Assembly: GCA_038845265.1 (NCBI GenBank)
Contig: JAWBQR010000016.1
Span: forward strand, 1-21,470
Source of the DNA: Nitrososphaerota archaeon
Lineage (GTDB): Archaea > Thermoproteota > Nitrososphaeria_A > Caldarchaeales > Calditenuaceae
DNA: 21,470 nucleotides
Direction of reading: 5' to 3'
Of the stretch, positions 2-20,274 are shown piece after piece. The position numbers were made by a program, and so were the translations under genes. The notes beneath the pieces were generated by a model. The model searched no databases, was not told the DNA's origin, and saw only the letters and a list, made by a program, of their open reading frames with translations. Every line of letters begins with the position of its first letter. Position 1 is the stretch's first letter.

Positions 2-1120
2 TTATTCCTAATTGCATTAATTGGATTTGCTGAATCTATTACTCATTTTGGAGCCATAACTTCTGCCGATAGCATACAGTATTTCAACGTTACTAGATTT
101 TTATTAGGAATACAAATTAATAATTGGGATCCAAAGTTATGGGTAACTAGGCCGCTTATACCCGCTTTAGCGACCCCGCTAAGCCTGATATTAGGACTCC
201 CCGCTGCCTACGGCATTATTAATACCATTTTCGTAATTCTATCCGGTATTCTCTATTATGAGCTTGCTTTCAAATTAACACAATCCAGCAGAGGATCACT
301 AATAGCTTCGATAATGCTTTTAACATCATTTATAACTATTTCATACGGTGCTGCATCAGGAAAAGAAGCTGGAGGGATATTCTTTCAGGTCTTGGTTACT
401 CTCATTGTTTTGAGTTCTCCCAAAGGTTTAATGAAAGCTGCTTTAACAGGATTGATCTCTGGGATTGGTGGACTAGCTTATGAGACAGTTTATGTCAGTG
501 TTGCTTTCGGATTCTTTCTATTTCTATTTAGAAAAAATTACAGAGAAGCATTCATCTATCTATTAGCCTCGCTTATTCCACAGATTATTCCACCAATTAT
601 TGGTGGATATAATATTATTGAAAGATATCTCGTGGCCTCAATTTTGTATGCTAAAAGCATTAATATGTATGATGTATTTACCTGGTTTGACTTAGGTAAT
701 AGAGTATCCCAATTTATCGTAGCAATCTCACCGTTAGGCACAATTGCTTTGTTTATAGGGTTTCTTCTGGAAAAGAGAGAAGAAGCAATGTACATATTTT
801 ACTTAATGTTTATTACCTCACTAATTGCTTGGTTTTCCTGGCCCCCAAATACTGCTAGAATAACCATAGTATTTTTCCACTCAGTCTTTTGGTTAGCAGG
901 ATATGGATGTAAGTCATTGGCAGAACTTTTAGCAAGAAAACCCATATTAAAATATTTGTCAGAAGATACATGGATAGCATTGCTACTTATTACAAATATT
1001 TTATTTAATAATTGGTTAGCTTATCGTTGGTATCTCAATCCCTCATCATACACAAAAACATGGGGACCAGTAGAGGGACTATCAATTCCCAGCAGCGAAA
1101 TGTTAAACTATCAATTATAG
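2..1120 (+). CDS. Multi-pass membrane protein, probable GT-C fold glycosyltransferase (ArnT/PMT-like); 5' end outside the window
   Basis: The frame of ORF 314..1120 is open back to base 2 (LFLIALIGFAESITHFGAITSADSIQYFNVTRFLLG...TRPLIPALATPL...). It has many hydrophobic segments, a D-x-x-x-Y first loop followed by RP-L-P, and internal KE and R motifs, as in GT-C enzymes. The DNA is very AT-rich. Confidence 0.55.
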   Translation, partial: LFLIALIGFAESITHFGAITSADSIQYFNVTRFLLGIQINNWDPKLWVTRPLIPALATPLSLILGLPAAYGIINTIFVILSGILYYELAFKLTQSSRGSLIASIMLLTSFITISYGAASGKEAGGIFFQVLVTLIVLSSPKGLMKAALTGLISGIGGLAYETVYVSVAFGFFLFLFRKNYREAFIYLLASLIPQIIPPIIGGYNIIERYLVASILYAKSINMYDVFTWFDLGNRVSQFIVAISPLGTIALFIGFLLEKREEAMYIFYLMFITSLIAWFSWPPNTARITIVFFHSVFWLAGYGCKSLAELLARKPILKYLSEDTWIALLLITNILFNNWLAYRWYLNPSSYTKTWGPVEGLSIPSSEMLNYQL

Positions 1121-1283
1121 CAAACAATTAATTATTTAATTATTTCATAGAAAATATATTCCTGTCCTCGCATTTTTTAATGTAGTAATGAGTAAGCCGG
1201 GATAGACGATTCGGAGATGAATAGAAACATCGACAAAGAGATGAGGATAACCCAGCAAGAATTATGGGAAAGCATAGAAGAAG

Positions 1284-1321
1284 TGTTAAGCAATTTTTAT
1301 AAAAATTTCAGATGCTTAACA
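1284..1321. repeat. Nested inverted repeat: 9-bp arms TGTTAAGCA / TGCTTAACA around a perfect AT-only palindrome AATTTTTATAAAAATT (1292-1307)
   Basis: Read directly: 1284-1292 tgttaagca and 1313-1321 tgcttaaca are reverse complements, and 1292-1307 is self-complementary. Confidence 0.75.
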
Positions 1322-1357
1322 GACGAATACCAGAACGAGCCGAGCCCAATAAATGGT

Positions 1358-1375
1358 AAAAGAGCTTTTTATATA
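1358..1375 (+). promoter_or_regulatory. BRE/TATA promoter of the first wHTH gene
   Basis: Purine-rich aaaagag followed by TTTATATA (1368-1375), about 29 nt upstream of ATG 1397, the typical leaderless archaeal spacing. Confidence 0.6.
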
Positions 1376-1396
1376 GCCTCAAAGAATAAATACGTG

Positions 1397-1888
1397 ATGA
1401 ATGATAAGATGAGGCTAAGCCTCCAGTACGGAGACCTGAAGGCAGACTTTGAAGGCACACCAGAAGAAGTTACAAAGCTTCTAATAAGGTTCCTCGAGCA
1501 GAACATCCCAACGTACTCAATCGCCCGCAGAATAACACTGACAGTCGACCTTGAATCCCTAGTAGACGCGGTCGAGACATATATCGGGTACAGCAAGGAT
1601 GACGGATTCTTCCTAAAGCCAGGATTCCAGCAACTCCCATCATCAGACCAGATTCTACTCCTACTAGCGAAGCGCTACCTAGAAAACATCTGGGGAATAA
1701 CACAGACACCAGCCATGAGTATGCGCGAAATATCCGAAAAACTAGGACTAAAAGAAGGAACATCATCATCAAGACTCACAGAACTAATAAGAAAAGGAAT
1801 GGTGAGAAGACTTGAGAGAGGCGACTACACAATCACGACTCTAGGCCTCCAAGAACTCATGAAGCTAAAAAAACAAGAAAAACCCTAG
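1397..1888 (+). CDS. Winged-helix DNA-binding protein (paralog A): N-terminal beta-hairpin/helix module plus C-terminal wHTH
   Basis: The C-terminal MSMREISEKLGLKEGTSSSRLTELIRKGMVRRLERGDYTITTLG is a classic wHTH. The start is moved from 1217 to ATG 1397 because of the TATA box position. Confidence 0.75.
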   Translation: MNDKMRLSLQYGDLKADFEGTPEEVTKLLIRFLEQNIPTYSIARRITLTVDLESLVDAVETYIGYSKDDGFFLKPGFQQLPSSDQILLLLAKRYLENIWGITQTPAMSMREISEKLGLKEGTSSSRLTELIRKGMVRRLERGDYTITTLGLQELMKLKKQEKP

Positions 1889-2328
1889 GCCACCTCAGCG
1901 CCCAGGCCGCCCTCACCCTGCTTCTCCTCGACCTCGCCACCAACAACTGCCTCCCTCCCCTGCCTCGCCCGATACGTATACCTACGAGGCACACCCTCCC
2001 TCACAAGCCGCTCCTCCCTAACCAAATCAAGAAGACCATGCGCAATAGCCGTCGAATCATAAGAATACCCCCTACGCCCAATCTCAGCCACCACATCCGA
2101 CAAACTCCTCGAAACCGAAAACCAACCCTCATCAATAAGACGCTCCAAAATATCCCGACAAGTAGTCACCCTACGCCGCTCCCCAACAACCCTACCCTCA
2201 ACCTCCTGACGACCCAGAGCCGCAACAACCCTCCTAACCGCCTCCTCAAGCTGATCAGGAGAAGCCTCAATCTCGACCGTCGCATTCCCGACCGTAATCT
2301 TAACCCTTATACGCTCACTGGTGTTCAT
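1885..2328 (-). CDS. Winged-helix DNA-binding protein (paralog B): same N-terminal module plus C-terminal wHTH
   Basis: CRDILERLIDEGWFSVSRSLSDVVAEIGRRGYSYDSTAIAHGLLDLVREERLVREGVPRRYTY fits a wHTH. The start is placed at ATG 2328 (MNTSERIRV), 28 nt downstream of TTTATTAA on the minus strand; ATG 2337 is an alternative. Confidence 0.7.
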   Translation of the reverse strand: MNTSERIRVKITVGNATVEIEASPDQLEEAVRRVVAALGRQEVEGRVVGERRRVTTCRDILERLIDEGWFSVSRSLSDVVAEIGRRGYSYDSTAIAHGLLDLVREERLVREGVPRRYTYRARQGREAVVGGEVEEKQGEGGLGAEVA

Positions 2329-2347
2329 TTTGACCATCTTGCGCAAC

Positions 2348-2356
2348 ATTAATAAA
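2348..2356. promoter_or_regulatory. Possible bidirectional TATA element shared by wHTH-B and nurA
   Basis: ATTAATAAA (+) / TTTATTAAT (-) is the only AT-only run in the 47-bp gap between the divergent starts at 2328 and 2376, and lies about 28 nt from each. Confidence 0.45.
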
Positions 2357-2375
2357 CAACCAACAACAACTAGTA

Positions 2376-3374
2376 ATGGCGACAAAAGCGATGATGAACA
2401 ACATAATGCTCAACCTGAACACCAATATTCAACAAGAAATGCGCCTATTTATGGATTACTCAGAAGAATGCACACTAACAATCCAACAACTCAAAAACAC
2501 AAGAATCAAAGAAACAATGAAAAAACCAAACCTCAACGAAAACGAAGAAGACAACACACAACTACTAATAGAGCCAAAAAACATCAAACCCATAAAAATC
2601 ACACCAACAGAACAAAAACACACAATCGCAATAGACGCATCAGTCATAAGACTAGCAGACTCAGCAAAAGGCACCGTAATAGCACTAAGAGGAGCAATAA
2701 TACATCGATCAAACAACATAAAAGTCGAGATCATCGGACCAATGATAAGGTTCATCAGCTACGAAGGCATGACAACCATAACAAACATAGAAACAACAAT
2801 CAAGACAGAACTAAAAATCTTCGAAAGACTAATACAACACTACGCAGCAACAAAAAACAAAAACGCAATAATACTACTAGACCATTCACTCACAATCACG
2901 CCCGACAAGCCCGGCAACCTACTCATAGACATACTTGAAAACGCCAGAAACAACTCAAACATAGTCATGGCATTCTCAAAAGACAGCGGCATAATACTAT
3001 CAGGAAAAACGCTATTCAGCATAGACGCAAACGCAGAGCCACCATTCATAATCGACCTGACAGATTCCATCAAGTACAAGACAACAACACTAAGACTCGC
3101 AGGAAGCACATACCTATCAAGACTCTCAAAACAAATGTTCCCATACCGCGTAGATGTTTATCCACGCACAGCAGCGCTACACGGCTTCGGATCTCTAATC
3201 CTATCAGATGCACTAATATATGGATATCCAGAGACGCTCTCGATCGCTCATTCAATGTGCTCCTTCACTTGGCTCGACGTAGTTGGACTTCAGAGAGCGC
3301 TTGTAAAAGATACTTCAGCAATCCTCATAGATGAGCCTGAATGCAGGACTGCTATATTATCACCATTCTCATAA
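2376..3374 (+). CDS. nurA: NurA-family 5'-3' nuclease (RNase H fold)
   Basis: Motifs IAIDAS (canonical AxDGS), FERL, ILLDHSL (canonical DGSL), FSKDS, YRVD and GYPETLSIAH (GYPxxLxxAH). It lies directly upstream of herA. The exact start is uncertain (2376, 2391, 2394 or later). Confidence 0.85.
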   Translation: MATKAMMNNIMLNLNTNIQQEMRLFMDYSEECTLTIQQLKNTRIKETMKKPNLNENEEDNTQLLIEPKNIKPIKITPTEQKHTIAIDASVIRLADSAKGTVIALRGAIIHRSNNIKVEIIGPMIRFISYEGMTTITNIETTIKTELKIFERLIQHYAATKNKNAIILLDHSLTITPDKPGNLLIDILENARNNSNIVMAFSKDSGIILSGKTLFSIDANAEPPFIIDLTDSIKYKTTTLRLAGSTYLSRLSKQMFPYRVDVYPRTAALHGFGSLILSDALIYGYPETLSIAHSMCSFTWLDVVGLQRALVKDTSAILIDEPECRTAILSPFS

Positions 3375-3384
3375 ATGATGAGAA

Positions 3385-4836
3385 TTGAAGATCCTTCGAA
3401 AGCATAACAATACAGTCGAGATCCTTACTCTGCCCGGAGATGCTGAATTAGAGAGAGGAGATTTTTTGCTTGCAAGTGAGGGAGAAAAGTCCTTATTACT
3501 TCAGGTTATAGATGAGGAGTATGCAGATATACCTGGAGTTTTAGAAGATCTTTTAAGAGAGATATCCATCGAGTCGATGGATGAGACTAGGCTCTTTGAT
3601 CCATTTAACATATCTTCACTGACAATGGTAATTAGAGATTCGAGAATAATCCTCACGAAGATAAGAGCAGTCATAGATAATGGACGATTATCCATGGGCA
3701 AGGTCTGGATGCCCTCAAGATTTAATGCAAGACTAGTAAAGGCAAGTGTCAATGATGTTTTAAAAATTTTGGGAGGAAGAACGACAATACCTATACTAAT
3801 CGGAGATGCGGGAGGCGAAGAGTTTTACATAGATGCAACGGAGCTTGAGGGAAAGCTTTCAATTATAACTGGTAAGAAGGAATCGGGAAAATCACATTTA
3901 GCGAAGATTTTAGCCACAGGGCTTACGACCCAAGGTGGAAGAGTGATTGTCTTTGATCTAAATGGTGAATATGTCAATCTGGGATTGCTTAAGTCTGGTA
4001 AGAGACACCCAGTAATGAGTGATAAAATTGTTGTCTTGGAGCCGACGATAAACTTTAGGGTTGGCATATCAGACATGGATCTAAATGTTATTCTGGACAT
4101 ACTTGAGCATGTATACGGTACTCCTATTACTAGTCTCCGCGAGTTTGCTAGGATATGGAACACCCTAACGAGCAGGGGAACAATTTCCCCGCACGAGCTG
4201 ATTAACGCTGTAAGCAGATTTCCTATGAACGAAGCAGTAAGGGAGGCGCTGCTTAGTCGTTTATCTTCATTAATGAATTCTGGTTTTTTCATTGATGGTA
4301 AAGGAGATGGCTTGCTAGAGATTTTCTCTGAGCATGATGATGGTTTGTTACTTGTGATTAATTTAAGCAAGGTATCACCTCAGATTCGTCGAGTAGTGGT
4401 TGAGTATTTACTGAGTAGGCTGAGTTCGTTGCTGTTTTCAGGAACTATCCAGCCAATATTTCTTTTTGCTGAAGAGGCACACTTATACCTGAGGAATACA
4501 TATTGGGAAGATATAGTTACGAGGATGAGGCATATAGGTATATCTCCAGTATTCATTACTAATCAGCCCGACACTATTCCAGAATTGATTTATCGTCAAG
4601 CCGACAATATTTTTTTATTCAATTTTACGAATGAGGCAGACTTAGAAGCGATTGCAAAGTATAGTCATGTTGATTCAGACACGATTAAGAAGATTTCTCC
4701 GTATCTTCAGAAGGGACAGGCCATAGTTATTGGGAAAGTAGTGTGTGGAATTCCAATTGTTCTGAATGTTAAGGATGTAGAATTGAACATGATGGGGGAG
4801 ACGAAGCTATTTTTTAAGGCAAAACAAACTAATTAG
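3385..4836 (+). CDS. herA: HerA/FtsK-superfamily ATPase (N-terminal HAS-barrel-like region plus DUF87 ATPase)
   Basis: Walker A ITGKKESGKSH, FDLNGEY, Walker B FLFAEEAH, arginine-finger region TRMRHIG and ITNQP. TTG start 10 nt after the nurA stop. Confidence 0.88.
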   Translation: MKILRKHNNTVEILTLPGDAELERGDFLLASEGEKSLLLQVIDEEYADIPGVLEDLLREISIESMDETRLFDPFNISSLTMVIRDSRIILTKIRAVIDNGRLSMGKVWMPSRFNARLVKASVNDVLKILGGRTTIPILIGDAGGEEFYIDATELEGKLSIITGKKESGKSHLAKILATGLTTQGGRVIVFDLNGEYVNLGLLKSGKRHPVMSDKIVVLEPTINFRVGISDMDLNVILDILEHVYGTPITSLREFARIWNTLTSRGTISPHELINAVSRFPMNEAVREALLSRLSSLMNSGFFIDGKGDGLLEIFSEHDDGLLLVINLSKVSPQIRRVVVEYLLSRLSSLLFSGTIQPIFLFAEEAHLYLRNTYWEDIVTRMRHIGISPVFITNQPDTIPELIYRQADNIFLFNFTNEADLEAIAKYSHVDSDTIKKISPYLQKGQAIVIGKVVCGIPIVLNVKDVELNMMGETKLFFKAKQTN

Positions 4837-4843
4837 TAGTAAT

Positions 4844-5506
4844 ATGCAAGCAGGTCTCGTGAGGATTCCTGAAGAGATACGTTTCGAGCTGTTAAGATTA
4901 TATGTAGGCATAGAAGATATTATCAAGTCTAGGTTATTAGAGTTCCAGAATTTTGACAAGAATGATGTTGAGAAGTTGTTTTCAGAGATGAGTTTTTGCG
5001 TCCTTACTCCACAGTCAAGAGCAAAAAGTGCTGACGCAGCTGTGAGAGAGTTGGTTAAGGATGGATTATTGTTTAATGGCACATATCATCAAGTTGCTGA
5101 CGTTTTAAGAAAATGGAATGTGAGGTTTTATGAGGCTAAGGCTCGTTATATAGTTCATAATAGGTATCTCCTTAAGGATAATGGAGCTATTTTGAAAAGT
5201 GCGTTAAGACTTAACTCTTTTGAATGTAGAGAGTTTTTGGTAGAAAAAGTTTGGGGCTTCGGATATAAAGAGGCTTCTCATTTCTTAAGGAATATTGGAT
5301 TCACGGGTTTAGCGATTCTTGATAGACATATCCTTAGGAATATGAAGTATATGGGTGTCATAGATGAGGTGCCTAAATCATTGACTCGTAGCCGTTACTT
5401 TAAACTTGAGCAGATATTCATTGCTGCGGCCTACTCACTTGGGATAAGTCCTGAAAGTCTTGATTTACTGCTTTGGTATCGCTCGACAGGTGAAGTATTC
5501 AAATGA
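4844..5506 (+). CDS. ogg: 8-oxoguanine DNA glycosylase/AP lyase (OGG2 type)
   Basis: EMSFCVLTPQS, HhH motif GFGYKEASHFLRNIG, AILDRHILR and the terminal ...TGEVFK lysine characteristic of OGG2. Confidence 0.93.
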   Translation: MQAGLVRIPEEIRFELLRLYVGIEDIIKSRLLEFQNFDKNDVEKLFSEMSFCVLTPQSRAKSADAAVRELVKDGLLFNGTYHQVADVLRKWNVRFYEAKARYIVHNRYLLKDNGAILKSALRLNSFECREFLVEKVWGFGYKEASHFLRNIGFTGLAILDRHILRNMKYMGVIDEVPKSLTRSRYFKLEQIFIAAAYSLGISPESLDLLLWYRSTGEVFK

Positions 5507-6468
5507 GCGCCTGTACATGGTCAGGCCAGAGCGGTATTAATCCGTCTGATGATCTTTTGGATTTTCTTAGGAGACTACCTGATATGGATATTGATGCATA
5601 TTTAGAGGCGGCCTCGAAACCTCTTCCTGAATGTTTCAGGATCAATACTCTTAAACTTCCGGAGGAACGAGTGAAAAACTTACTAAAGGATAGGGGATGG
5701 AGTTTTGTAAAGATTCCTTGGGCTAGATTTGGTTACAGGTTGATGAGTGGCCCAGAGAGTGGGTTGGGTCTGTCTATGGAACATATGTTGGGACTTATTT
5801 ATGTTCAGGGTCCTGTATCTATGCTTCCAGCCGAAGTGCTAGAGCCCAAGCCTGGGACCGCCGTGCTTGATTTATGTGCATCACCAGGTAGTAAGTCTAC
5901 TCAGCTTGCACAATTGATGAATAATGAGGGGATACTTGTGTGTAATGATATTTCGGCTACCAGGATAAAACCACTTGTAGCCAATCTTCAGAGATGTGGA
6001 GTAATTAATGTCATTATTGTTCAATCCGATGGTCGGCTATTCCGAAACTGGTGTAAAGAACAATTTGACAATGTGTTGGTAGATGCACCATGTAGCTCCT
6101 TAGGAATATTATCAAAGGACTGGTCCGCTGCAAATAGATATTCAGAAAAACTCTCAAGAAGAATTAGCAGACTCCAGCAGTCTCTTCTAATATCGGCATA
6201 TGATTGTCTGAAGCCTGGCGGACTCCTAGTTTACTCTACCTGTACGATTCATCCATTAGAAAATGAATGGGTGGTTACTCATTTACTGGATGAGAGGAGT
6301 GATGCTAAATTGTTGCCGGTCTCTGGGAATGGACTGAAATCACGGAAACCCCTTGAAGAGTGGGCAGGTGTAAAGTTCTCATCAGAGATAAAAAATTGCT
6401 TTAAGTGCTATCCACATGATAATGATGCTGAGGGGTTCTTTATCGCAAAAATTAAGAAGGAGATGTAA
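5503..6468 (+). CDS. RsmB/NOP2/RsmF-family RNA (cytosine-5) methyltransferase
   Basis: FRINTLK, SAM motif VLDLCASPGSKSTQ, and the two catalytic Cys motifs VDAPCS and VYSTCT; ENE; GFFIAKI. ATGA overlap with ogg. Confidence 0.93.
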   Translation: MSACTWSGQSGINPSDDLLDFLRRLPDMDIDAYLEAASKPLPECFRINTLKLPEERVKNLLKDRGWSFVKIPWARFGYRLMSGPESGLGLSMEHMLGLIYVQGPVSMLPAEVLEPKPGTAVLDLCASPGSKSTQLAQLMNNEGILVCNDISATRIKPLVANLQRCGVINVIIVQSDGRLFRNWCKEQFDNVLVDAPCSSLGILSKDWSAANRYSEKLSRRISRLQQSLLISAYDCLKPGGLLVYSTCTIHPLENEWVVTHLLDERSDAKLLPVSGNGLKSRKPLEEWAGVKFSSEIKNCFKCYPHDNDAEGFFIAKIKKEM

Positions 6469-6471
6469 ATC

Positions 6472-6948
6472 ATGAAGGGAGTACTGACTGAGGAAGAGAA
6501 AAAGAAAGTAGAAGAACTTTTAGAGAATCAATACGGGATTAGTAATGCATTAAAAAACTACGTAGCCATAGTAAGTGGTGAAAACAGGATAAGAATCACT
6601 CATAAAGATGTCTTAGAATTTTCTTGGAAACTTAAAGGAGTTGTGAATATTGGTTTATACATAGCAAAACTCGCTGAGAACGAGGTGTCATTATCGATTG
6701 AGGGGACACAGCTTTTTTCGGGCCTAATTAGGAAAAATATAATTAATCTGACCATAGACGAGGCTGAGAAATGGATGCGCGGTGAGACTTTAAGGATTGA
6801 GAACGTTTCAAACTCTAGATACGTTGTCGCTAAATTTGATGACATTTTTTTGGGTACTGGGAGAGTCGGTAAAGATGGACTTATTTATCCACAAATACCG
6901 AAAAACCGCCTTACTGCTCAGAATCTAAGATCCGCTGAGAATCTTTGA
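6472..6948 (+). CDS. PUA-like RNA-binding protein (RsmF C-terminal domain / NIP7-like partner of the m5C methyltransferase)
   Basis: GLYIAK...LSIEGTQL...EAEKWMRGE...FLGTG...IPK pattern; starts 3 nt after the methyltransferase stop. Confidence 0.7.
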   Translation: MKGVLTEEEKKKVEELLENQYGISNALKNYVAIVSGENRIRITHKDVLEFSWKLKGVVNIGLYIAKLAENEVSLSIEGTQLFSGLIRKNIINLTIDEAEKWMRGETLRIENVSNSRYVVAKFDDIFLGTGRVGKDGLIYPQIPKNRLTAQNLRSAENL

Positions 6949-7500
6949 TTTTACTTCTTCAACGTGTCTTGGTAGCGAGCTCATAATCTCGCTTGCAAGA
7001 AGCGAGAATTGAAAAGTTGTTCCGTCATGTGGAAGGCTCTGATAGTATGCGGAAATATGTTCACCTCTCAGGCGCTCGTCAGTCGGAGCTGCCGCCTCTG
7101 ACATAGGAACCTCTAATCCGGCGTCTATCACTCCTTTTATCGCTGCAAAGACTCTTGAACCGGGGACCGGACTATATCTGCCAATATCTGCGATAGCTTT
7201 CGTTATGCCCATCTCTACAGCCTTTTTACCCGCAATAAGTCCGGTTAGATATGCTGCTGGAATATTCTTAGTCCCAGCCTTCCAGCCATAAGAGGAGAGC
7301 AGTTTCGAAGTTACAGTCAACAGTGTACGATCTCCGCCAGGCCTTGACTCTACTATCTGGATAGTCATGTATCTATTAGAGCGCCTCACCACTACGCGAG
7401 GCAAACCAGACTTCACTAGTTTTAGACGTAGTCTATAGTCAGTTATGCCCATACGTTTTCTCCGCGGAGGAAACCTACGATAAAAGACCCGCTTTGGCAT
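6925..7500 (-). CDS. rpl18: 50S ribosomal protein L18 (uL18)
   Basis: TDYRLRLKLVKSGLPRVVVRRSNRY, NIPAAYLTGL, DIG, GSRVFAAIKGVIDAGLEVP, GEHI. Confidence 0.96.
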   Translation of the reverse strand: MPKRVFYRRFPPRRKRMGITDYRLRLKLVKSGLPRVVVRRSNRYMTIQIVESRPGGDRTLLTVTSKLLSSYGWKAGTKNIPAAYLTGLIAGKKAVEMGITKAIADIGRYSPVPGSRVFAAIKGVIDAGLEVPMSEAAAPTDERLRGEHISAYYQSLPHDGTTFQFSLLASEIMSSLPRHVEEVKSKILSGS

Positions 7501-7515
7501 ATCTTACACACCACA

Positions 7516-7947
7516 TTAACTTAATGAGGTTTTTACAAGCTGGTTTTCCGTGAGGTATGCCTTGAGGTCTGCTACCGACTTAAATCTACCAGCCTTGATC
7601 TGTAGATATATCTTTCTATAGACACCTTCCTTTAATCGACCTGCATCCCTCAGAGATGCCAAGAATCTCCTCTGCGACCTTACCCTCATTATCCATCTTC
7701 TTTTTCTCGTAACGACTGAGTGCATTGCGCCCTTCCTTCTGCCGGGGCCACGTCTTTCCTTTACTCTAAGCCTCTGCTGCCCTCTTACTGGCTCAGCATA
7801 TATTGCGCCATCTTTAATTAATGCCTTGATTTCTGCCCTAGTTATTGCATCTCTGATATCTTCAAGTCTTTCTTGATTAAACCTTATTCTATTCTCTCCA
7901 CATTTCAAGATATCTGCTGCTAGTCTTTTTTGAATCTTTAACGACAT
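7516..7947 (-). CDS. rpl19e: 50S ribosomal protein L19e (eL19)
   Basis: LKIQKRLAADILKCGENRI, AITRAEIKALIKDG, RGPGRRKG, WIMRVRSQRR, YRKIYLQIKAGRF. Confidence 0.97.
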   Translation of the reverse strand: MSLKIQKRLAADILKCGENRIRFNQERLEDIRDAITRAEIKALIKDGAIYAEPVRGQQRLRVKERRGPGRRKGAMHSVVTRKRRWIMRVRSQRRFLASLRDAGRLKEGVYRKIYLQIKAGRFKSVADLKAYLTENQLVKTSLS

Positions 7948-8367
7948 TTAGGTGACACCTCTCGGAGGGTTAAGCACCCTTAATCCAGCAGAGAGAGCGG
8001 CTTCATATATTTTTAGCTTATTCCTTCTACCAAGTCTTCCAGAAATCCTCACGGCATGTATTGAAGGATCAAGCCCCTTCAAGTCGTCCTCTTTGCTGAC
8101 GAGTACCTCCTTAAATCCAGATGGATGGAGACCTCTGTATTTTCTTGGACTTCTGTATCCTACTTTAACGAGTGGTGGCCAGCCGCTTACCTGAAGTCTC
8201 ATTTTACTATCCTTCCCCCTAGGCCTGCGCCAGTTCTCCTTTAACCTGACATATCTCCACGACTCTTGTCTCTTGAATTCTGGTCTCTCCTTTCTAATCC
8301 TGAGTACTCTACGTGGAATCTTGACTGCGGCTTTGGGTTTCTTGACCACCTCTGTCTCCTCGCTCAA
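7948..8367 (-). CDS. rpl32e: 50S ribosomal protein L32e (eL32)
   Basis: RPEFKRQESWRYVRLKENWRRPRGKDSKMR, VGYRSPRKYRGLHPSG, RVLNP; TTG start. Confidence 0.97.
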   Translation of the reverse strand: MSEETEVVKKPKAAVKIPRRVLRIRKERPEFKRQESWRYVRLKENWRRPRGKDSKMRLQVSGWPPLVKVGYRSPRKYRGLHPSGFKEVLVSKEDDLKGLDPSIHAVRISGRLGRRNKLKIYEAALSAGLRVLNPPRGVT

Positions 8368-8398
8368 TCTTATTTCTAAGCCCTTAATAACTCGCCAT

Positions 8399-8416
8399 CT
8401 ATAAAACCTTCCTTAC
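8399..8416 (-). promoter_or_regulatory. BRE/TATA promoter for rpl32e-rpl19e-rpl18
   Basis: The minus strand reads GTAAGGAAGG-TTTTATAG (TATA at 8406-8399), 32-39 nt upstream of the rpl32e start. Confidence 0.5.
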
Positions 8417-8482
8417 TCTAAGTCTTGGACGCCCTAAAAATCATTTATTTCAAGCCATACTTGATAATTATAGATAGTCAAT

Positions 8483-9361
8483 ATGCTTGCAATCGTCATT
8501 CTGGCAGGAGGAAGGTCAAAAAGATTTGGAACAAATAAATTAATCTACAAAGTCGAGGGTGAAAGCATGATTAAACGTGTCTTCAAGGCAGCCTCAGAAA
8601 TTACGCAAAATATTTACCTATCAGTAAAGGACAGGGCGCAGGCAGATATCCTACTAGGCGTCTGTGATGGGTTCAGCGGTGTAATATTGGATGCTTTCAA
8701 AGAAATTAATGGCCCCATAAATGGCGTAATTACTTCCCTGAATACATTAAGTTGCGGAGAAGTCGTGACTATTCCTGGGGATATGCCTTTTATTGATTCT
8801 AAGTCATTGTCTAAGTTTATCGATACATGTAAATCCCTAGATGCTAATTCTGGATCGATCTACTGGCCAAGTGGTTGGGTCGATGCCCTTATTCAATATC
8901 ATAAACGCGAAAAAGCAGTAAAACATGCATCTCTATACACTATTAGGGGAGCAATGTCTAGGTCATCAGATATTCTAAGAGCATCAAAGAAAGTTTACTA
9001 TATTCCAATATCTCACCTCACTAAAAATTACAGAACTTTTATTAACATAAATACACCAGAAGATTTATCGAAAAACAATACTGTGCTGTCTTATTCGATG
9101 CCTAAAATTAAACACGTTAAGGAAGACATTATAGAGAATTTTCTATTAGCAACAAACATGCTTAAGAATGATTTGCCCATGGCTGCAGAATACTACTTGT
9201 TCGAGGGAAAAAAATACGAAGAAGAAGAGCTGTATACGTTAGCCATGCATGCATACAAAGATGCAAAAATCTGTTTTGAGAAGCTTAACAAATATACTAG
9301 AGCAAAAGATTTAGATATGAAAATAGCACATATAAAATCTCTCCTAAATTATCATAGATGA
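8483..9361 (+). CDS. mobA: Molybdenum cofactor guanylyltransferase (MobA) with an extra ~95-aa helical C-terminal domain
   Basis: VILAGGRSKRFGTNK, GPINGV, PGDMPFI, FININTPEDL; convergent with moeA. Confidence 0.85.
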   Translation: MLAIVILAGGRSKRFGTNKLIYKVEGESMIKRVFKAASEITQNIYLSVKDRAQADILLGVCDGFSGVILDAFKEINGPINGVITSLNTLSCGEVVTIPGDMPFIDSKSLSKFIDTCKSLDANSGSIYWPSGWVDALIQYHKREKAVKHASLYTIRGAMSRSSDILRASKKVYYIPISHLTKNYRTFININTPEDLSKNNTVLSYSMPKIKHVKEDIIENFLLATNMLKNDLPMAAEYYLFEGKKYEEEELYTLAMHAYKDAKICFEKLNKYTRAKDLDMKIAHIKSLLNYHR

Positions 9362-9423
9362 GTGCATAATTTCAGACATATTACATTCATCCTTCGAGCC
9401 CAATAATCAGTAATATTGATTAA

Positions 9424-10662
9424 TCATCTCACTAAATTGACTAGTATTTTTTCGCCTGCTTTAATTGTCTTGTCATTATCGACCAATAGGTATCCATTGA
9501 CCCTTAGTAAACTGCTGAATGAAGATGGTCTTGACTTAAGAGGCACGGCATGGAGTTCTCCATTCCGCAGCTCTAGACTTATTAGGATGATGCTTGTCAA
9601 TCCTGCCTTACCTTTTACATCAAGATCTAGAATTGCGGGACATGAATTGATAGATTCATTGACGCCTGACAGTAGATTAATTATTTTCTTTCCAAATATT
9701 TGATAACAGACATACATCGAGACAACATGTCCAGGCATCATCAATACTGGTATATTGTTGACTACAGCGTAACCGGTGGGCTTGGCCGGGTAGCATCTAA
9801 CGCCGTGAAAAATAATCTTTGCACCACTTATCGACTTAATGGCTTTAGGGACTATGTCATTAGGCCCTATAGAACATCCACCAGTAGTAAATATAACATC
9901 GCAATTCCTCGAAAGCTCTAATAACTTATTCTTAAATTCAACTTCATCATCATGCACAACACTAATCGATACAACATCGGCGCCAGCTTCAAGTGACTTT
10001 CGCGAAATTATATATGAATAATTAATGGCTTCCAATCCTCTCTCCTGATATCCTTCAAATAGTTCATTACCTACTGAAATGATTGCTAGTCTCGGCTTAC
10101 GAAAAACATGTATCTTTTCGAAGGAAAGCTCCATTAATAATCCGGTGATCTCTGGAGTTATTATGCTCCCAGCTTTCAGTAGCAATTCTCCTTCCCTCAC
10201 CTCTTCACCTTTCTGTATGACGTCTTTTCCAGGCATGACTTTTTCGATTATACGCACGTATTCGCCCTCAACTTTAAAATTCTCAGACCTGACCACTGCG
10301 TCTGCTCCTCTCGGTAGAGCCATGCCAGTAGCTATAGGTACGGCCTCACCACTTCTTAACGAGTCAACATATGATTTCTTTAGATAGAGCTTAACTGGAT
10401 TCTTATGAGATGCATGTAAAAGATCCTTACTATTGACAGCTATCCCGTCAAGTGCAGCTAATTCTTTTGGTGGCACATTGCTTGGCGCATATATGTCTTC
10501 AGCCAGAATTCTTCCAGGACTCTCCACTAAGCTTATCTCTTCTATGCATGGCTTGTAATTTATCAAGGATTCATGAATTGCTGCTTGAGCCTCCTCCAAA
10601 GTAATTAGACGGAGAGTAGATGTATATTCGTGCTGAGATTCGTGACCTTCCAAATCCTTCAA
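9424..10662 (-). CDS. moeA: Molybdopterin molybdenum/tungsten transferase MoeA (divergent motifs)
   Basis: GRILAEDI, VPP..AALDGIAV, IATGMALPRGADAVV, GEEVREGE, SVGNEL, TTGGCSIGPND, PAKP, MPG; TTG start with TTTTATAT about 30 nt upstream. Confidence 0.92.
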   Translation of the reverse strand: MKDLEGHESQHEYTSTLRLITLEEAQAAIHESLINYKPCIEEISLVESPGRILAEDIYAPSNVPPKELAALDGIAVNSKDLLHASHKNPVKLYLKKSYVDSLRSGEAVPIATGMALPRGADAVVRSENFKVEGEYVRIIEKVMPGKDVIQKGEEVREGELLLKAGSIITPEITGLLMELSFEKIHVFRKPRLAIISVGNELFEGYQERGLEAINYSYIISRKSLEAGADVVSISVVHDDEVEFKNKLLELSRNCDVIFTTGGCSIGPNDIVPKAIKSISGAKIIFHGVRCYPAKPTGYAVVNNIPVLMMPGHVVSMYVCYQIFGKKIINLLSGVNESINSCPAILDLDVKGKAGLTSIILISLELRNGELHAVPLKSRPSSFSSLLRVNGYLLVDNDKTIKAGEKILVNLVR

Positions 10663-10729
10663 TCTTATCCATGTAGGTGCGTCAATATAAAAAATAATTT
10701 ATACACCCAAGTACTTAAAATGTAAAGAA

Positions 10730-11293
10730 TTATGATTCTATCCCTACTTTCTTCTCATATAGATATATTCCGTCAAGATATTTCCGTGGATCCTTATCTT
10801 TAACTTTCGTAGTATTTTCAATAATGCCTGCTGCAAGCCCAACTTTCTCCTTATCCAGCCCGGTCAATATTATTTCGTCTCCTTTTACTGTCGCCTTGAC
10901 GCCGTCTGGAAGCACTACCTTTCTGGGCACTTTTTCTCCAATAAAATTCTCGATCAACAACTCATTTCCCTTTATTTTTATGCTTATAGGAAAGTGAGAT
11001 TGAATTATCTTCATCCTGTATGTAAAGCCCTTAGTGACGCCAGTAACCATATTTTCGATTATTGACCTGACTGTATTGAGTATAGCGATTGCGCGTCGTC
11101 CTCTCCCGTAGACTCTGATTTTTAATGTGTTCTCCGAGATGCTCATCTTAACTCCCGCATTAATAAAACTCTTCGTCAATTCTCCGAGCTTTCCTTTCAC
11201 CGTAACTGTATTTGGTGAATTAAGACTTACCTGTACATCACTAGGTATTTGGACAGAGTCTTCGACAAACTTTAATTTGCTTATAGCCTGCAT
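10730..11293 (-). CDS. rpl6: 50S ribosomal protein L6 (uL6)
   Basis: VKGKLGEL, ENMVTGVTKGFTYRMKIIQSHFPI, NFIGEKVPR, KDPRKYLDGIY. The start is placed at ATG 11293 (MQAISK). Confidence 0.97.
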   Translation of the reverse strand: MQAISKLKFVEDSVQIPSDVQVSLNSPNTVTVKGKLGELTKSFINAGVKMSISENTLKIRVYGRGRRAIAILNTVRSIIENMVTGVTKGFTYRMKIIQSHFPISIKIKGNELLIENFIGEKVPRKVVLPDGVKATVKGDEIILTGLDKEKVGLAAGIIENTTKVKDKDPRKYLDGIYLYEKKVGIES

Positions 11294-11349
11294 GTTTTTT
11301 CCTGCAATATGTATGAAAATCGGTACCTTTAATATGCTTCGCAATAATA

Positions 11350-11739
11350 TCAGTACACGTATCCAAGTAGCTTGCCGCCTATTCTCATTTTTATTGCTTC
11401 GGTATGCGACATGACGCCTTTAGTAGTTGTTACAACTATTATTCCCACATTCTTGCTCGGTAGATAGAGCTTTGTCCATCGTTCATACTCGTCCTTTTTT
11501 ACGCTTATCCTAGGCTTTATTGGTGCAGCCCTGTTTATACGTCCGAGAAGCTGTATAAGGACTTTTCCGCCTCTCCCATCTTCAATATATTCAAAAGCGC
11601 CTATGTATCCATGTCTCTGCAACGTTCTAAGAATATCTGTGATCAGCTTAGAGTAATAGTAAATACACTCTTTATTCCTGACGAACTCGTTGTTCTGCAA
11701 TGTCGTAAATAATCCTGCAACGAGGTCCTTAGCAACCAT
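11350..11739 (-). CDS. rps8: 30S ribosomal protein S8 (uS8)
   Basis: SKLITDIL, GYIGAFEYIEDGRGG, LLGRIN, IKPR, TTTKGVMSH, IGGKLLGYVY. The start is placed at ATG 11739 (MVAKD), with TTTAAAT about 30-36 nt upstream. Confidence 0.97.
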   Translation of the reverse strand: MVAKDLVAGLFTTLQNNEFVRNKECIYYYSKLITDILRTLQRHGYIGAFEYIEDGRGGKVLIQLLGRINRAAPIKPRISVKKDEYERWTKLYLPSKNVGIIVVTTTKGVMSHTEAIKMRIGGKLLGYVY

Positions 11740-11794: not shown

Positions 11795-12523
11795 TTAATC
11801 GAACAATCTGCGCCTAAGGTGCTTCAAATATGGGGACTGGAGACTACAAGTCATTAATGGCTCCTTAAGACGCATCTTCAATAAGGGGGGAGATGGTAGA
11901 GATACAGCTGGCTCTGATAGAAAGCTTTTCAATGTCCTTAAAGGAGAATGAAACAAAACATCATCAAAATACGGACTACCATATACAGTCAATAGTAAGG
12001 GAATTAATCGTATTTCGAACTCTCCCTCACCAATGGTCTTACTGAGAAATTCCCTCATAATGAGTATTCTTCGCTTCATTGCCGACTCAATTGTTTTGAT
12101 GAGCCCAATTGTTATGCTTCGCCTCCATCGTTTACATTCAACTATATATAACGTATCTTCATTAAATGCCAATAAGTCAATCTGCGTCTTATTTTTCCCA
12201 ATACTGATCTGAATATTCCTCATTATGTTCAGTCCGGCATTTTCAAAAATACGTGAAGTTAATTCTTCAAATAAGCTCCAATCAAGTGATACTGAGAGCA
12301 CTTCTGGAGACACATTCATGCCGAAAAGAGTTACCGCTATTCTCAGTAGGTCATCAGAGCCAAGCATTTCTCCATCCTTCAAGTTAAATTTCTCAAAAAC
12401 CCTTCTGACAACATCTCTCGAGGACCCTGACCATTCCTTAACCGTCTCGATAAATATAGGCCCAACTCTCGATGTTCTTAAAACACATAACAATACATTT
12501 CGCTCAACGGAAGAGATCTTCAT
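11795..12523 (-). CDS. PD-(D/E)XK restriction endonuclease-like protein (Mrr/NERD-like)
   Basis: DWSLFEELTSRIFENAG ... QIDLLAF ... IVECKRW. The probable start ATG 12523 overlaps the cofE 3' end by 20 nt. Confidence 0.8.
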   Translation of the reverse strand: MKISSVERNVLLCVLRTSRVGPIFIETVKEWSGSSRDVVRRVFEKFNLKDGEMLGSDDLLRIAVTLFGMNVSPEVLSVSLDWSLFEELTSRIFENAGLNIMRNIQISIGKNKTQIDLLAFNEDTLYIVECKRWRRSITIGLIKTIESAMKRRILIMREFLSKTIGEGEFEIRLIPLLLTVYGSPYFDDVLFHSPLRTLKSFLSEPAVSLPSPPLLKMRLKEPLMTCSLQSPYLKHLRRRLFD

Positions 12524-13259
12524 CGGCCGGCCTAATAATCCTCCGCGCCCCATCCTCACTCGCCTTATATCTATATCCTCGTATTATTGCTACCGGCACA
12601 CCCTCATCTGCCTGGCCCATAACAAGCTCAGCAGCAGATGCTAGTTCATCTGCAATGCAGATCTGCTTACTCCTCAATATTCGTCCATAAAGATCCTTCT
12701 CACCCCTTCTGTCCCAAATGGGCTCGATTCCGCTGCAACCTACAGCAACATTGATCGCCCCCCTGCGGAAGGGCCTCCCATGCGAGTCAGTAATTATTAC
12801 AGCAACATGTTTTCCAGTCAAGGCTTCGATCTCCTTCCTAATAATTTCAGCAGACTTATCAGGATCAATCGGAAGGAGCGCCACCATTCCCTCGCCAACA
12901 TTTGACAAATCTACACCGCTATTCGCACAAATAAAACCATGCCTAGTCTCGGTAATTATTACTTCTCCCCTCATCCTCACTATCCTGACCGCTTCCCGAA
13001 GGATTGCCTCTACATGTCTCGGATCCTTACCCGTAGTTGCCGCTATGTTTAGAGCATCCTGGCTTGGAATAAATTCGCTAAGCGAGTAAACCCTACCCTC
13101 TGCCTTTGAGACAATTATCTGTGTCACTAAAACTATGTCGTGATCCTCTATTGTCAGACCCATCCTGTTCACTGCCTCTATAATTATCTCACCGAGATTG
13201 TCTCCAGGCCTAATTAGTGGTATTCCGCTAACTCCAATAATCTCAATTTTTTGGACCAT
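12504..13259 (-). CDS. cofE: Coenzyme F420-0:L-glutamate ligase
   Basis: IPLIRPGDNL, IVSKAEGR, ANSGVDLSN, LLPIDPDKSA, ITDSHGRPFRRG, DLYGR, DELASAAELVMGQADEGVPVAIIRG. Confidence 0.95.
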   Translation of the reverse strand: MVQKIEIIGVSGIPLIRPGDNLGEIIIEAVNRMGLTIEDHDIVLVTQIIVSKAEGRVYSLSEFIPSQDALNIAATTGKDPRHVEAILREAVRIVRMRGEVIITETRHGFICANSGVDLSNVGEGMVALLPIDPDKSAEIIRKEIEALTGKHVAVIITDSHGRPFRRGAINVAVGCSGIEPIWDRRGEKDLYGRILRSKQICIADELASAAELVMGQADEGVPVAIIRGYRYKASEDGARRIIRPADEDLFR

Positions 13260-16553: not shown

Positions 16554-16731
16554 GCCCTGCCTCGCCCTTATAATATTCTTGTTTTTATCCACTTTCCCAA
16601 AATACCGATAGCAACATTCTTTAAAGATTCTCAGAGTAATAATTTATCCTTATCAGACTCATGGAGCAATGTTAAGCCGCCTACTTAAACATTTTATTAG
16701 AAGGAACAATCTATAATGACAGTGCTGTAGG

Positions 16732-17133
16732 TTGAAGAGACGGATATTATTGACACCTCGACAGATTGAAGTTTTGCGACTGAGGAGACGTGGATTTACA
16801 CAAGAACAAATAGCGGAAATACTCAAGACAAGCAGAGAAAATATAAGCATAATTGAGAAAAATGCGTATAGAATAATCAAGGCAGCAAAATCAACCTTAG
16901 AAGCTTTTGAATCGCTTGACTCGGATAGAATATTGACCATACCGGCTGGGACATCAATCTACGACGCTCCGAGAATAATATTTGTACGAGGCGACATATT
17001 AGGAATCAAGATAAAATCATCTGCTGACCGCATAATCTCAATGATAAAGTCTACGGGAAAAGTAAGAGGACACCACCTAATTTCACCAATAGTAGTAGAG
17101 ATATATCAGGATGGAAAAATCTTTATTCAGTAA
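16732..17133 (+). CDS. tfx: Tfx-family DNA-binding protein
   Basis: N-terminal HTH LTPRQIEVLRLRRRGFTQEQIAEILKTSRENISIIEKNA and Tfx C-domain IPAGTSIYDAPRIIFVRGDILGIKI. Confidence 0.88.
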   Translation: MKRRILLTPRQIEVLRLRRRGFTQEQIAEILKTSRENISIIEKNAYRIIKAAKSTLEAFESLDSDRILTIPAGTSIYDAPRIIFVRGDILGIKIKSSADRIISMIKSTGKVRGHHLISPIVVEIYQDGKIFIQ

Positions 17134-17137
17134 TAAT

Positions 17138-17168
17138 GTAAATTAGCTGATTTACGAAGAATTATAAA
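17138..17168 (+). promoter_or_regulatory. 18-bp palindromic operator candidate (GTAAATTAGCTGATTTAC) followed by BRE and TATA box of modA
   Basis: 17138-17155 matches its reverse complement at 16 of 18 positions, then GAAGAA, then TTATAAA (17162-17168); the modA ATG is at 17193. Confidence 0.7.
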
Positions 17169-17192
17169 CACTCTCAAACGAAAATCAACGTA

Positions 17193-18050
17193 ATGAATAA
17201 ACAAACTCTCCTCATACTCACAGCAGGAATAGTTATTGGAATATTAATAGGAACAATAAGCGCCGCATCATCCAATCTATACTTTAATAAACCACAGCAA
17301 GAAAAAGTAATAGTTGTATTTGCAGGCGCTGCTGCTGCTCCTGTATACAGAGAAGCAGCCACGATGTTTGAGTCAAAATATGGCGTTAAGGTTGAACTCA
17401 GGTTAGGCGGGTCTGGCAGCCTATTGTCAGCTATGGAGATCGCGAAGACTGGCGATGTCTACATACCAGGATCTCCCGAATACATACAAAAGGCGATAAA
17501 ATTAGGAATTGTGGAGCCAGACTATGTAAAGAAGATGGCGTATCTCGTCCCCGCGATAATTGTTCAGAAAGGTAATCCTAAAAATATTTCATCTCTAGAA
17601 GACCTCGCGAAGCCCGGTATAAGTGTTGGAATCGCAGACCCTGAATCTGTCTGCGTGGGACTCTACGCAAAGGAATTACTCGAGAAGAATGGATTATGGG
17701 AGGAAGTAAAGAAGAACATTGTAGTATATGCACAGAGCTGTGAGGCAACTGCCTCCCTGATACCGACGAGGTCAGTTGATGCGATTATCGGATGGCACGT
17801 ATTTAAAGCATGGTATCCGGACAAAGCTGACATCGTATGGATAGAGCCATCAAAAATACCAAAGATAGGATACATTGCTGGAGGAGTTTCCACTTTTTCT
17901 AAAGAAAAAGAATTAGCTGAAAAATTCTTAGAGTTTCTCCAATCCGAAGAGATGGCAGATATATGGGGAAAGTATGGATACTATTCATCCGTACAAGAAG
18001 CTATGATACACGCGCCAAATGCCGAGATAGAGGATATCGAAGCAGACTAG
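17193..18050 (+). CDS. modA: Molybdate/tungstate ABC transporter substrate-binding protein
   Basis: N-terminal membrane anchor; VFAGAA, GGSGSLL, GDVYIPG, VQKGNPKNISSLEDLAKPG, IADP, AEKFLEFLQS..WGKYGY. Confidence 0.85.
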   Translation: MNKQTLLILTAGIVIGILIGTISAASSNLYFNKPQQEKVIVVFAGAAAAPVYREAATMFESKYGVKVELRLGGSGSLLSAMEIAKTGDVYIPGSPEYIQKAIKLGIVEPDYVKKMAYLVPAIIVQKGNPKNISSLEDLAKPGISVGIADPESVCVGLYAKELLEKNGLWEEVKKNIVVYAQSCEATASLIPTRSVDAIIGWHVFKAWYPDKADIVWIEPSKIPKIGYIAGGVSTFSKEKELAEKFLEFLQSEEMADIWGKYGYYSSVQEAMIHAPNAEIEDIEAD

Positions 18051-20077: not shown

Positions 20078-20274
20078 AAAAAGGCCACCCAGCAATAAGA
20101 AGAATCCACGAAGAACTTTCACAACTATCTAAAGAAATACTAGACTTAAAAGAAGCCTATCTAAGAGGTGAGGTAGATTTTGAAGAATATAGAGAGAAGA
20201 GGGCTGAACTTGAAATTGAGTATGAGAGGCTAGCTGAAGAACGTTTAAGGAAGTATACCAAAAGTAAAAAATAG
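20074..20274 (+). CDS. Small soluble coiled-coil protein with a SHOCT-like motif
   Basis: ILDLKEAYLRGEVDFEEYREKRAEL fits the L-x-x-L...G-x-I/V-x-x-EEY-x-x-K-x-x-x-L pattern; GTGA overlap with the rps19e stop implies translational coupling. Confidence 0.65.
   Translation: MKKGHPAIRRIHEELSQLSKEILDLKEAYLRGEVDFEEYREKRAELEIEYERLAEERLRKYTKSKK

Follow-up and report, generated by a model that had tools for sequence, protein, structure and literature searches.

In mammals, a keto (G+T) excess on the non-template strand is described in one report as anchored at the start site and extending over one to few kilobases, and its authors ascribe the asymmetry to single-stranded non-template DNA and R-loops (PMC2927911). 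In mitochondrial DNA (mtDNA), the H strand is rich in G+T and the L strand in A+C owing to A and C being deaminated in DNA that is single-stranded (ssDNA), and the replication skew of prokaryotes is presented in the same account as weak, spanning replichores and switching at origins and termini only (PMC3269012). The stretch considered here, the window, comprises the first 21,470 nucleotides of contig C16 (JAWBQR010000016.1) in the 34-contig, 1.37-Mb assembly (GCA_038845265.1, hereafter G000) of a hot-spring archaeon of the Caldarchaeales (Aigarchaeota), which are thermophiles. Upstream of its herA gene lies a tract in which the plus strand is rich in A+C and the minus strand in G+T, and this tract belongs to a class of kilobase-scale keto-skew patches that recurs throughout the genome and across the phylum.

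Transcription-linked asymmetry in mammals amounts to a few per cent. The patches resemble the mammalian start-site asymmetry, as that report characterises it, in their keto excess and kilobase extent, and possibly in being anchored at start sites. They differ in that third codon positions within them reach 85-97% two-letter usage, with the amino acids pulled along, that the effect is confined to a minority of genes, that half of the patches would need antisense starts, and that transcription is here presumed. With vertebrate mtDNA, as portrayed in the mitochondrial account, they share C>T and A>G changes on the exposed strand, codon endings that follow the strand, and a mirrored pattern in a gene on the opposite strand. 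However, the mitochondrial asymmetry covers a whole genome that is replicated by strand displacement from one origin, whereas the archaeal asymmetry consists of scattered patches of 0.2-3.5 kb that take either polarity and are anchored at gene borders. Replication skew in GC or keto content, the analogy drawn by the initial annotation, is likewise a G+T excess of one strand, the leading one, ascribed to deamination of the more exposed strand, yet the patches are extreme and local, alternate within kilobases, and do not lie beside the cdc6 genes of G000. Kataegis (AID/APOBEC acting on ssDNA) provides a further parallel in its kilobase clusters of same-strand transitions, which imply a single-stranded intermediate; it is, however, a one-off event that hits C only, whereas the patches affect both C and A, are gradual under selection, and are maintained across species. 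A literature search whose coverage excluded supplements and subscription journals returned no description of local strand-skew patches in archaea. Strand asymmetry from single-strand exposure is a known process, and its extreme, patchy, putatively promoter-anchored archaeal form appears to be new.

The strand-bound tract of contig C16

Tracts were called by maximal-scoring segmentation of A+C versus G+T along the genome, and z values for A+C were taken against all genome windows of equal length. In the window, the segmentation delimits a core at 1627-3135 in which A+C reaches 0.700 on the plus strand (z=+5.75), and 0.26% of genome windows lie as far from 0.5. In the composition profile, calculated in 200-nt windows along the plus strand, A+C ranges from 0.65 to 0.77 between ~1600 and ~3200, and weaker A+C shoulders extend to the left of the core to ~1400. 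The same segmentation applied to a shuffled genome yielded 0 tract segments. The initial annotation had reported an A+C strand skew over a pair of winged-helix genes and nurA, and the skew is real; all five of its hand counts are exact (A+C 40/60, 44/60 and 50/60, the last with 4 T and 6 G; G+T 41/60 and 36/60). The tract and the genes in and beside it are the following.

1627-3135, plus strand A+C-rich (0.70), minus strand G+T-rich: tract core, supported by segmentation, profile, z and the same place in two congeners
1397-1888, plus strand: winged-helix (MarR/HTH_24-like) gene, Pfam HTH_24 E=7.5e-07 over residues 161-197 of a 223-amino-acid (aa) open reading frame (ORF)
1885-2328, minus strand: 147-aa gene called as an ORF, coded on the G+T-rich strand with codons ending in G/T
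2376-3374, plus strand: divergent NurA-family gene, assigned by homology to a gene of the relative G005 and by its place upstream of herA
3385-4836, plus strand: herA (HerA/DUF87 ATPase), Pfam DUF87 E=2.1e-16, outside the tract
4844-5506, plus strand: 8-oxoguanine DNA glycosylase gene (ogg), Pfam Ogg-HhH E=1.3e-56, outside the tract

The bias belongs to the DNA strand and not to the gene, since nurA on the plus strand and the 1885-2328 gene on the minus strand show the same bias when both are read in plus-strand letters. Third positions were pooled over G000 and two congeneric species, G001 and G002, which share ~75% identity with G000 over the tract region. They are A.49, C.36, G.10 and T.05 in nurA, and A.38, C.44, G.13 and T.04 in the 1885-2328 gene. 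The view that the skew is strand-bound, also put forward in the initial annotation, is borne out by this mirroring. The 3′ half of the 1397-1888 gene likewise lies inside the tract and is coded on the A+C-rich strand, with third positions at 1500-1885 of A.45, C.27, G.19 and T.08. Codons 1-253 of nurA (2376-3135) fall within the tract, on the A+C-rich strand, and its last ~80 codons are of normal composition. The spacer between the 1885-2328 gene and nurA looks A+C-rich by eye.

The abrupt stop claimed in the middle of nurA is confirmed. A+C drops from 0.69 to 0.51 at ~3136, an edge common to the three congeners and placed slightly earlier (~3040) in G002. In G001 and G002 the tract occupies the corresponding position and peaks at 0.76-0.80. 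The flip to G+T that was thought to follow in herA and ogg is not unusual, as its z of -1.6 to -1.9 is equalled or exceeded by the skew of 5-8% of genome windows. The region 3400-5500 has A+C 0.451 (z=-1.58), and 7.9% of genome windows are equally extreme. The third positions of herA (A.28, C.17, G.24, T.32) are ordinary and like those of flanking genes, herA has a z of -1.07, and ogg, at A+C 0.425 (z=-1.88; 5.4% of windows as extreme), shows a mild G+T excess within the normal genome range. Elsewhere in the window, milder A+C excesses (0.56-0.61 in 200-nt windows) under the tract threshold occur at 12300-13000, 16700-17300 and 19900-20200.

Distribution and polarity of the patches

G000 contains 19 tracts of both polarities, each of 0.35-2.8 kb and together 26,458 nt (1.9%), and a closed 1.68-Mb chromosome of the same order (G024) contains 78, which make up 3.7% of its length and alternate in polarity within kilobases. 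The genes that bear them in G000 are unrelated and include those for L2/L23/L4, proteasome beta, NAC, Nre, a ubiquitin-like protein and a pyridoxal phosphate enzyme, as well as a phosphorylase, an ABC binding protein, an ArsR-type protein and an ATPase. Third positions in the G000 tracts have an A+C of 0.03-0.19 or 0.81-0.87, and the tracts on C16 and C5 contain genes of both directions with opposite third-position bias. In G024, it is the third position that deviates most in 54 of 62 tract genes. Of the G000 tracts, one (C6 33091-33635) has its skew from a repeat protein rich in T/E/V, and another (C6 28254-29248) is weak.

The phylum was surveyed with a crude tracer, a run of 40 A/C letters with at most 3 mismatches. 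Hits occur in 27 of the 41 relatives, in 49 of 76 genomes from the class and in 131 of the 201 genomes sampled from the phylum, so that the phenomenon is widespread whatever its cause. Several of the near-complete genomes in the phylum sample give hundreds to thousands of tracer hits. Some phylum genomes (G134, G204, G214, G229) hold 1,800 to 11,700 windows of 40 A/C letters, and loci sampled from distant phylum genomes show the same third-position tracts over up to 44-62% of a contig. Patch load thus differs by orders of magnitude between lineages. On a shorter time scale, all six tracts examined, that of C16 included, are common to G001 and G002 at the same place and with the same polarity. 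By contrast, the herA loci profiled in other genera of the family carry no tract upstream of herA, and the proteasome gene bears a tract at 0 of 28 more distant loci. Tract positions are therefore stable within the genus and differ between genera, and comparison of orthologous nurA-herA loci, which the initial annotation had suggested as a check, finds the tract conserved to that extent and no further.

The direction of the genes does not predict the polarity of the patches. With real genes in G024 identified through cross-family homology, 27 of 56 tracts have their main gene on the G+T-rich strand and 29 have it on the A+C-rich strand; in G000 the corresponding split is 12,297 versus 6,888 nt. 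The even split in G024 indicates that sense transcription does not set polarity. In addition, G024 patches often cover only part of a gene, and in one gene the two ends carry patches of opposite polarity. That gene-level codon adaptation or sense transcription causes the patches was rejected on the basis of this tally, of the genes of both directions inside single tracts, and of the opposite patches within one gene. The alternation of polarity within kilobases in G024 likewise led to rejection of global replication direction as the cause.

The patches are instead polar with respect to gene borders, with a sharp start that usually lies at a border and an extension 5′>3′ along the G+T strand for 0.2-3.5 kb. 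In G024, 40 patches cover part of a gene; a main-gene border is found within 60 nt of the 5′ end of the G+T strand in 16 of them, and within that distance of the 3′ end in 1. The contrast is stronger in the 30 partial-gene patches dominated by the third position, a restriction that removes hydrophobic N-termini as a cause of the polarity: the 5′ edge of the G+T strand is within 100 nt of a border in 18 of 30, and the 3′ edge in 0 of 30 (p=1.9e-7). The 5′ edge is also the nearer of the two to a border in 27 of 30 patches of G024 and in 11 of 14 of G000 (p=.057). The A+C strand has, on average, its sharper edge at the 3′ end, where A+C goes from 0.71 to 0.51, against a change from 0.53 to 0.66 at the other end.

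Along genes, G+T-coded patches sit at gene 5′ ends and A+C-coded patches at gene 3′ ends. Fourteen A+C-coded patches start at a stop codon, and nine of these have a neighbour supported by homology; the nearest neighbour is co-directional in 7/9, starting within about -60 to +230 nt, and convergent in 2/9. This neighbour geometry indicates that G+T strands tend to diverge from promoter-bearing junctions. Such divergent geometry at gene starts resembles the skew at bidirectional promoters.

Substitution pattern and possible mechanisms

Among the three species, identity in purine/pyrimidine terms is the same in and out of the C16 tract (~0.9), while identity over all letters is higher inside. At the nurA third positions that fall in the tract, transversion differences amount to ~0.20 in all, as in flanking genes; among them, A<>C differences occur three times as often (0.149 vs ~0.045), and transitions are ~2.5 times rarer than in flanking genes. 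This combination indicates that the sites turn over yet stay within a two-letter alphabet. The bias is transition-only, with G>A and T>C on the A+C strand and C>T and A>G on the G+T strand.

A general Markov model was fitted by expectation-maximisation to 2,835 third positions in five tracts and 1,555 in flanking genes; the tree was a star with three leaves, and both the root composition and the matrix of each branch were left free. On the A+C strand, P(A>G) is.03 (interval.02-.05) in G000,.07 (.05-.09) in G001 and.19 in G002, against.16-.29 outside tracts, and P(C>T) is.00 (0-.03),.03 (0-.05) and.12, against.10-.22 outside. Inside tracts, the fit puts the root at A.55, C.34, G.07 and T.04, and the stationary A+C of the branch process is.92 for G000,.84 for G001 and.67 for G002, whereas it is.42-.49 outside tracts; the C11 region, unusually alike in G000 and G001, shortens those two branches, and the forward rates are poorly determined, with wide intervals. 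Under this model, the bias is still enforced in the G000 and G001 lineages and is relaxing in G002.

The skew at codon positions 1 and 2 is far smaller than at position 3, and protein domains are still recognisable, which indicates that change has been gradual and under purifying selection; one-shot hypermutation was rejected on the same grounds. Within the part of NurA that lies in the tract, V>I (13) and R>K (6) are the most frequent replacements, and residues whose codons start with G/T only fall from.23 to.08, with no such shift in the part outside the tract. The opposite exchanges, I>V and K>R, are seen in the proteasome gene, which is G+T-coded.

The explanation favoured here, with a probability of roughly 0.45, is that transcription from promoter-like sites, sense or antisense, exposes the non-template strand, and that heat-driven deamination of this strand generates the patches. 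What favours it is the signature of both C>T and A>G on one strand together with the border-anchored 5′>3′ geometry, and it is from geometry that the link to transcription is inferred. Transcription would begin at a promoter-like site in either sense, and the non-template strand would repeatedly become single-stranded in open complexes and R-loops. Hydrolytic deamination of C and A, driven by heat, would convert C to T and A to G on the displaced strand, and the complementary strand would lose G and T and become A+C-rich, as would have happened to the plus strand here. The changes build up gradually under purifying selection, with third positions approaching saturation and proteins drifting conservatively, and the regime is kept over speciation-scale time. 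The analysis thus establishes that the patch class exists, is conserved, has a transition-only signature, is maintained and is polar, whereas transcription, R-loops and deamination are its proposed cause. At the C16 locus, the exposed strand would be the minus strand, and an antisense unit would start within nurA near the following zone.

3136-3230, minus strand: predicted start zone of a leftward process exposing the minus strand, deduced from the polarity rule of G024 and G000 and the sharper 3′ edge of the A+C strand

From there, the unit would run left through the minus-strand 1885-2328 gene and fade by ~1400-1600. Within this zone, TATA-like letters also encode conserved residues, so that their conservation is uninformative as to a promoter motif.

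Several observations weigh against this explanation. Half of the G024 patches would have to arise from antisense or upstream transcripts. In the C16 tract, the G+T strand has its 5′ edge (3135) 239 nt from the nearest gene border, which would require a promoter inside nurA, and 11 of 22 A+C-coded partial patches of G024 start at no border of the main gene. Expression level alone is not the determinant, as the region of the ribosomal-protein tract is affected in part only. In the Markov fit, suppressed reverse transitions are clearer than raised forward ones, which also fits selection. Adenine deaminates much more slowly than cytosine, yet the bias of T>C on the A+C strand equals or exceeds that of G>A. 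EndoV is found in 41 of 41 relatives and UDG in 39 of 41, with or without tracts. Finally, parsimony polarisation inside tracts counts 572 A>G against 234 G>A and 306 C>T against 158 T>C, which at face value is decay. This decay signal was set aside in favour of the Markov fit because surviving G/T lie at constrained sites and parallel changes are mis-polarised. Loss of repair of deaminated bases was also considered as a cause and rejected, since the presence of EndoV and UDG in the 41 relatives is not linked to the presence of tracts.

A wider proposal is put forward more tentatively still, namely that Thermoproteota carry previously undescribed, promoter-anchored, strand-specific hypermutation patches that may be R-loop or ssDNA footprints at sense and antisense starts and that persist over speciation-scale times. 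In a bolder variant, the exposed strands would indicate where DNA synthesis is primed by R-loops independently of an origin. Should the patches be mutational footprints left by exposure of a strand, local DNA transactions override codon usage and shift protein composition in blocks. This would be relevant to codon-usage models, gene finders, detection of horizontal gene transfer, and the phylogenetics of thermophilic archaea, because composition would be non-stationary inside single genes. The patches would also offer a map of start sites and R-loops in uncultured archaea drawn from sequence only, and a natural system in which to measure heat-driven deamination against repair. If they are selected instead, they point to an undiscovered constraint on two-letter strands.

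Such selection, acting as purifying selection rather than through mutation, is an unlikely explanation. It would keep start regions unstructured or remove palindromic target sites: RNA made of A+C only cannot self-pair and RNA made of G+U only can form wobble pairs alone, with A+C placed upstream and G+U downstream of starts. The 3-10 fold suppression of reverse transitions without clearly raised forward rates agrees with selection, as do the anchoring of patches at gene borders and the position of A+C-coded patches just upstream of the next co-directional start in 7 of the 9 supported cases. However, patches of up to 3.5 kb take in whole genes and operons, far beyond what a start region needs, and one stretch imposes opposite codon endings on genes of opposite direction. 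Amino acids are dragged along at a cost to the protein, the bias is relaxed in G002, and an A+C leader beside a G+U start would be expected to pair more, not less.

Directional low-fidelity synthesis is slightly more doubtful. Repair synthesis, or synthesis initiated at a nick or primed by an R-loop, would proceed from a fixed site and leave the new strand G+T-rich through G.T mispairs, in which G is placed opposite T and T opposite G. It predicts the same polar geometry, with a sharp start, extension 5′>3′ along the G+T strand and variable length, and G.T mispairs fit the similar strength of both transitions better than spontaneous deamination does. On the other hand, thousands of events from one site in one direction would be needed, and no nick site, shared boundary motif or dedicated polymerase was identified, no motif search having been run at the boundaries. 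Recurrent starts of DNA synthesis are also not known to lie at gene borders in archaea.

It is improbable that the patches are imported DNA, derived from mobile elements or viruses with an ssDNA phase or extreme skew and now decaying in the host. The strongest cluster of G024 (715-728 kb) does coincide with a defence island (Eco57I-type methylase, PLD-SNF2 helicase, Csx1, Cas6) without homologues in G000, patch edges are often arbitrary relative to genes, the parsimony counts resemble decay, and the C11 region has a G000/G001 identity of 0.86-0.93 against 0.74-0.82 in its flanks. Against import, core genes such as those for ribosomal proteins and the proteasome bear patches, transversion divergence is equal in and out of them, which gives no sign of a more diverged foreign source, and the Markov fit has the bias still enforced in G000 and G001. 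A single saturating event would have wrecked the proteins, and import leaves the placement of G+T-strand 5′ ends at gene borders unexplained.

The two remaining explanations are the least likely. The initial annotation proposed a repeated strand-asymmetric process at this locus, of which the general part stands, in that the pattern is transition-only, strand-bound and maintained, the signature of exposure of one strand. Its specific forms, namely origin-like or recombination-driven initiation, fork stalling, or polarity signals for the HerA translocase, are very improbable. An A+C stretch followed by mild G+T does have origin-like polarity, and the tract is kept beside nurA-herA within the genus. 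However, the scattering of similar tracts over unrelated loci of both polarities, 19 in G000 and 78 in G024, with runs across the phylum, counts against a reading tied to this locus, be it an origin or a signal akin to FtsK-orienting polar sequences (KOPS), and other genera retain nurA-herA without the tract. The herA/ogg flip is within the normal range, and adjacent opposite pairs in G024 occur in both orders, 10 with G+T before A+C and 6 with A+C before G+T (hand count). This lack of a preferred order also led to rejection of pair order as the signature of a break or bubble. The signal is a third-position composition bias and not an oriented motif of KOPS/FtsK type, for which no enrichment test was made. 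The initial annotation saw neither an ORB nor cdc6 at the locus, and as to cdc6 it is correct: the Cdc6_C matches of G000 fall on C7 (41054-41332) and C15 (13382-13654), with none on C16.

An artefact of sequencing or assembly, for which the position of the tract 1.4-3.2 kb from a contig end of a short-read metagenome-assembled genome whose contig ends overlap by 127 bases might have spoken, has a likelihood close to nil and is refuted by the same tract in two other species at ~75% identity and by independent contigs that cross its edge, and tracts also occur in the closed chromosome G024. The tract stretch is present in 16 metagenome runs (at least 0.86 of its words), including studies not flagged as a possible source. 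Of the contigs from other runs, one of 5,856 nt (X11) spans 1204-4500 with 6 differences and another (X8) spans 1000-3288 with 1 difference; both bridge 3135-3150, without the assembly break that the initial annotation had wished to exclude.

Genes of the locus and minor observations

The 1397-1888 gene is preceded by a conserved box.

1360-1380, plus strand: A/T-rich, TATA-like box AAAGAGCTTTTTATATAGCC, invariant in the three-species alignment, ~20 nt upstream of the winged-helix start codon

Homology to G002 begins at ~1360, which suggests 1397/1400 as the start codon of this gene. With its look of a factor B recognition element and TATA box, we take the box to be the gene's own promoter, from which a leaderless transcript would be made. 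The product of the 1885-2328 gene has no significant family match, the best being Penicillinase_R at E=0.0073, below the cut-off; it is probably a winged-helix protein as well.

Against NurA profiles, the 2376-3374 product has no Pfam match at E<=1 and no NCBIfam match. It does share 34% identity over 330 residues (E=2e-58) with the G005 gene upstream of herA, which itself passes the Pfam NurA cut-off (25.9 vs 21 bits), and this homology identifies it as a divergent NurA. It is suspected that drift driven by the tract lowers its profile score. herA begins 11 nt past the nurA stop, and a gene for an RsmB-type methyltransferase lies downstream of ogg.

An Rfam search of the window found no family. 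An un-mutated copy of the tract elsewhere in the assembly was sought with k-mers in purine/pyrimidine space and discarded as a candidate, as the search gave ordinary repeats and the 127-base contig-end overlaps only. None of the runs that contain the stretch is listed as RNA. Two runs of one study, labelled metatranscriptomic and flagged "probably DNA" (X17, X18), yield contigs mainly on 1610-1948 and 2384-3136, one of which ends at 3136; these contigs give neither strand nor ends. They contain back-joints (2792>2384, 2956>2582 and 3136>2544) in the A+C-rich part of nurA, which could be circular RNA, template switching on low-complexity sequence, or an effect of the assembly graph.

In G024, two short G+T tracts (691863-692071 and 697943-698233) flank the stronger orc1/cdc6 match (696862-697140) at ~4 kb and 0.8 kb. 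They share polarity, and there is therefore no switch of the origin type. The defence island of the same chromosome (715371-721500; L098:15371 to L099:1500) has an Eco57I/MmeI-type methylase of 1030 aa in a G+T tract. A PLD + SNF2/ResIII helicase of like orientation follows directly, within an A+C tract, and Csx1 and Cas6 lie beyond it.

On contig C5 of G000, a segment of ~1.7 kb at ~56300-58100 (L043:4400-6200), directly past the C5 tract, lacks a counterpart at the orthologous position of G001 and G002; it may have been inserted in G000 or lost from the other two. On C11, G000/G001 identity is 0.86-0.93 over ~1250-6000 (L044), compared with 0.74-0.82 in the flanks and elsewhere, which suggests recent recombination between the two lineages across both C11 tracts. 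Within the C11 G+T tract, ~75 nt at 5750-5826 (L044) are 77-89% identical to several other loci of G001 and G002 and may be a tRNA gene or a short repeat.

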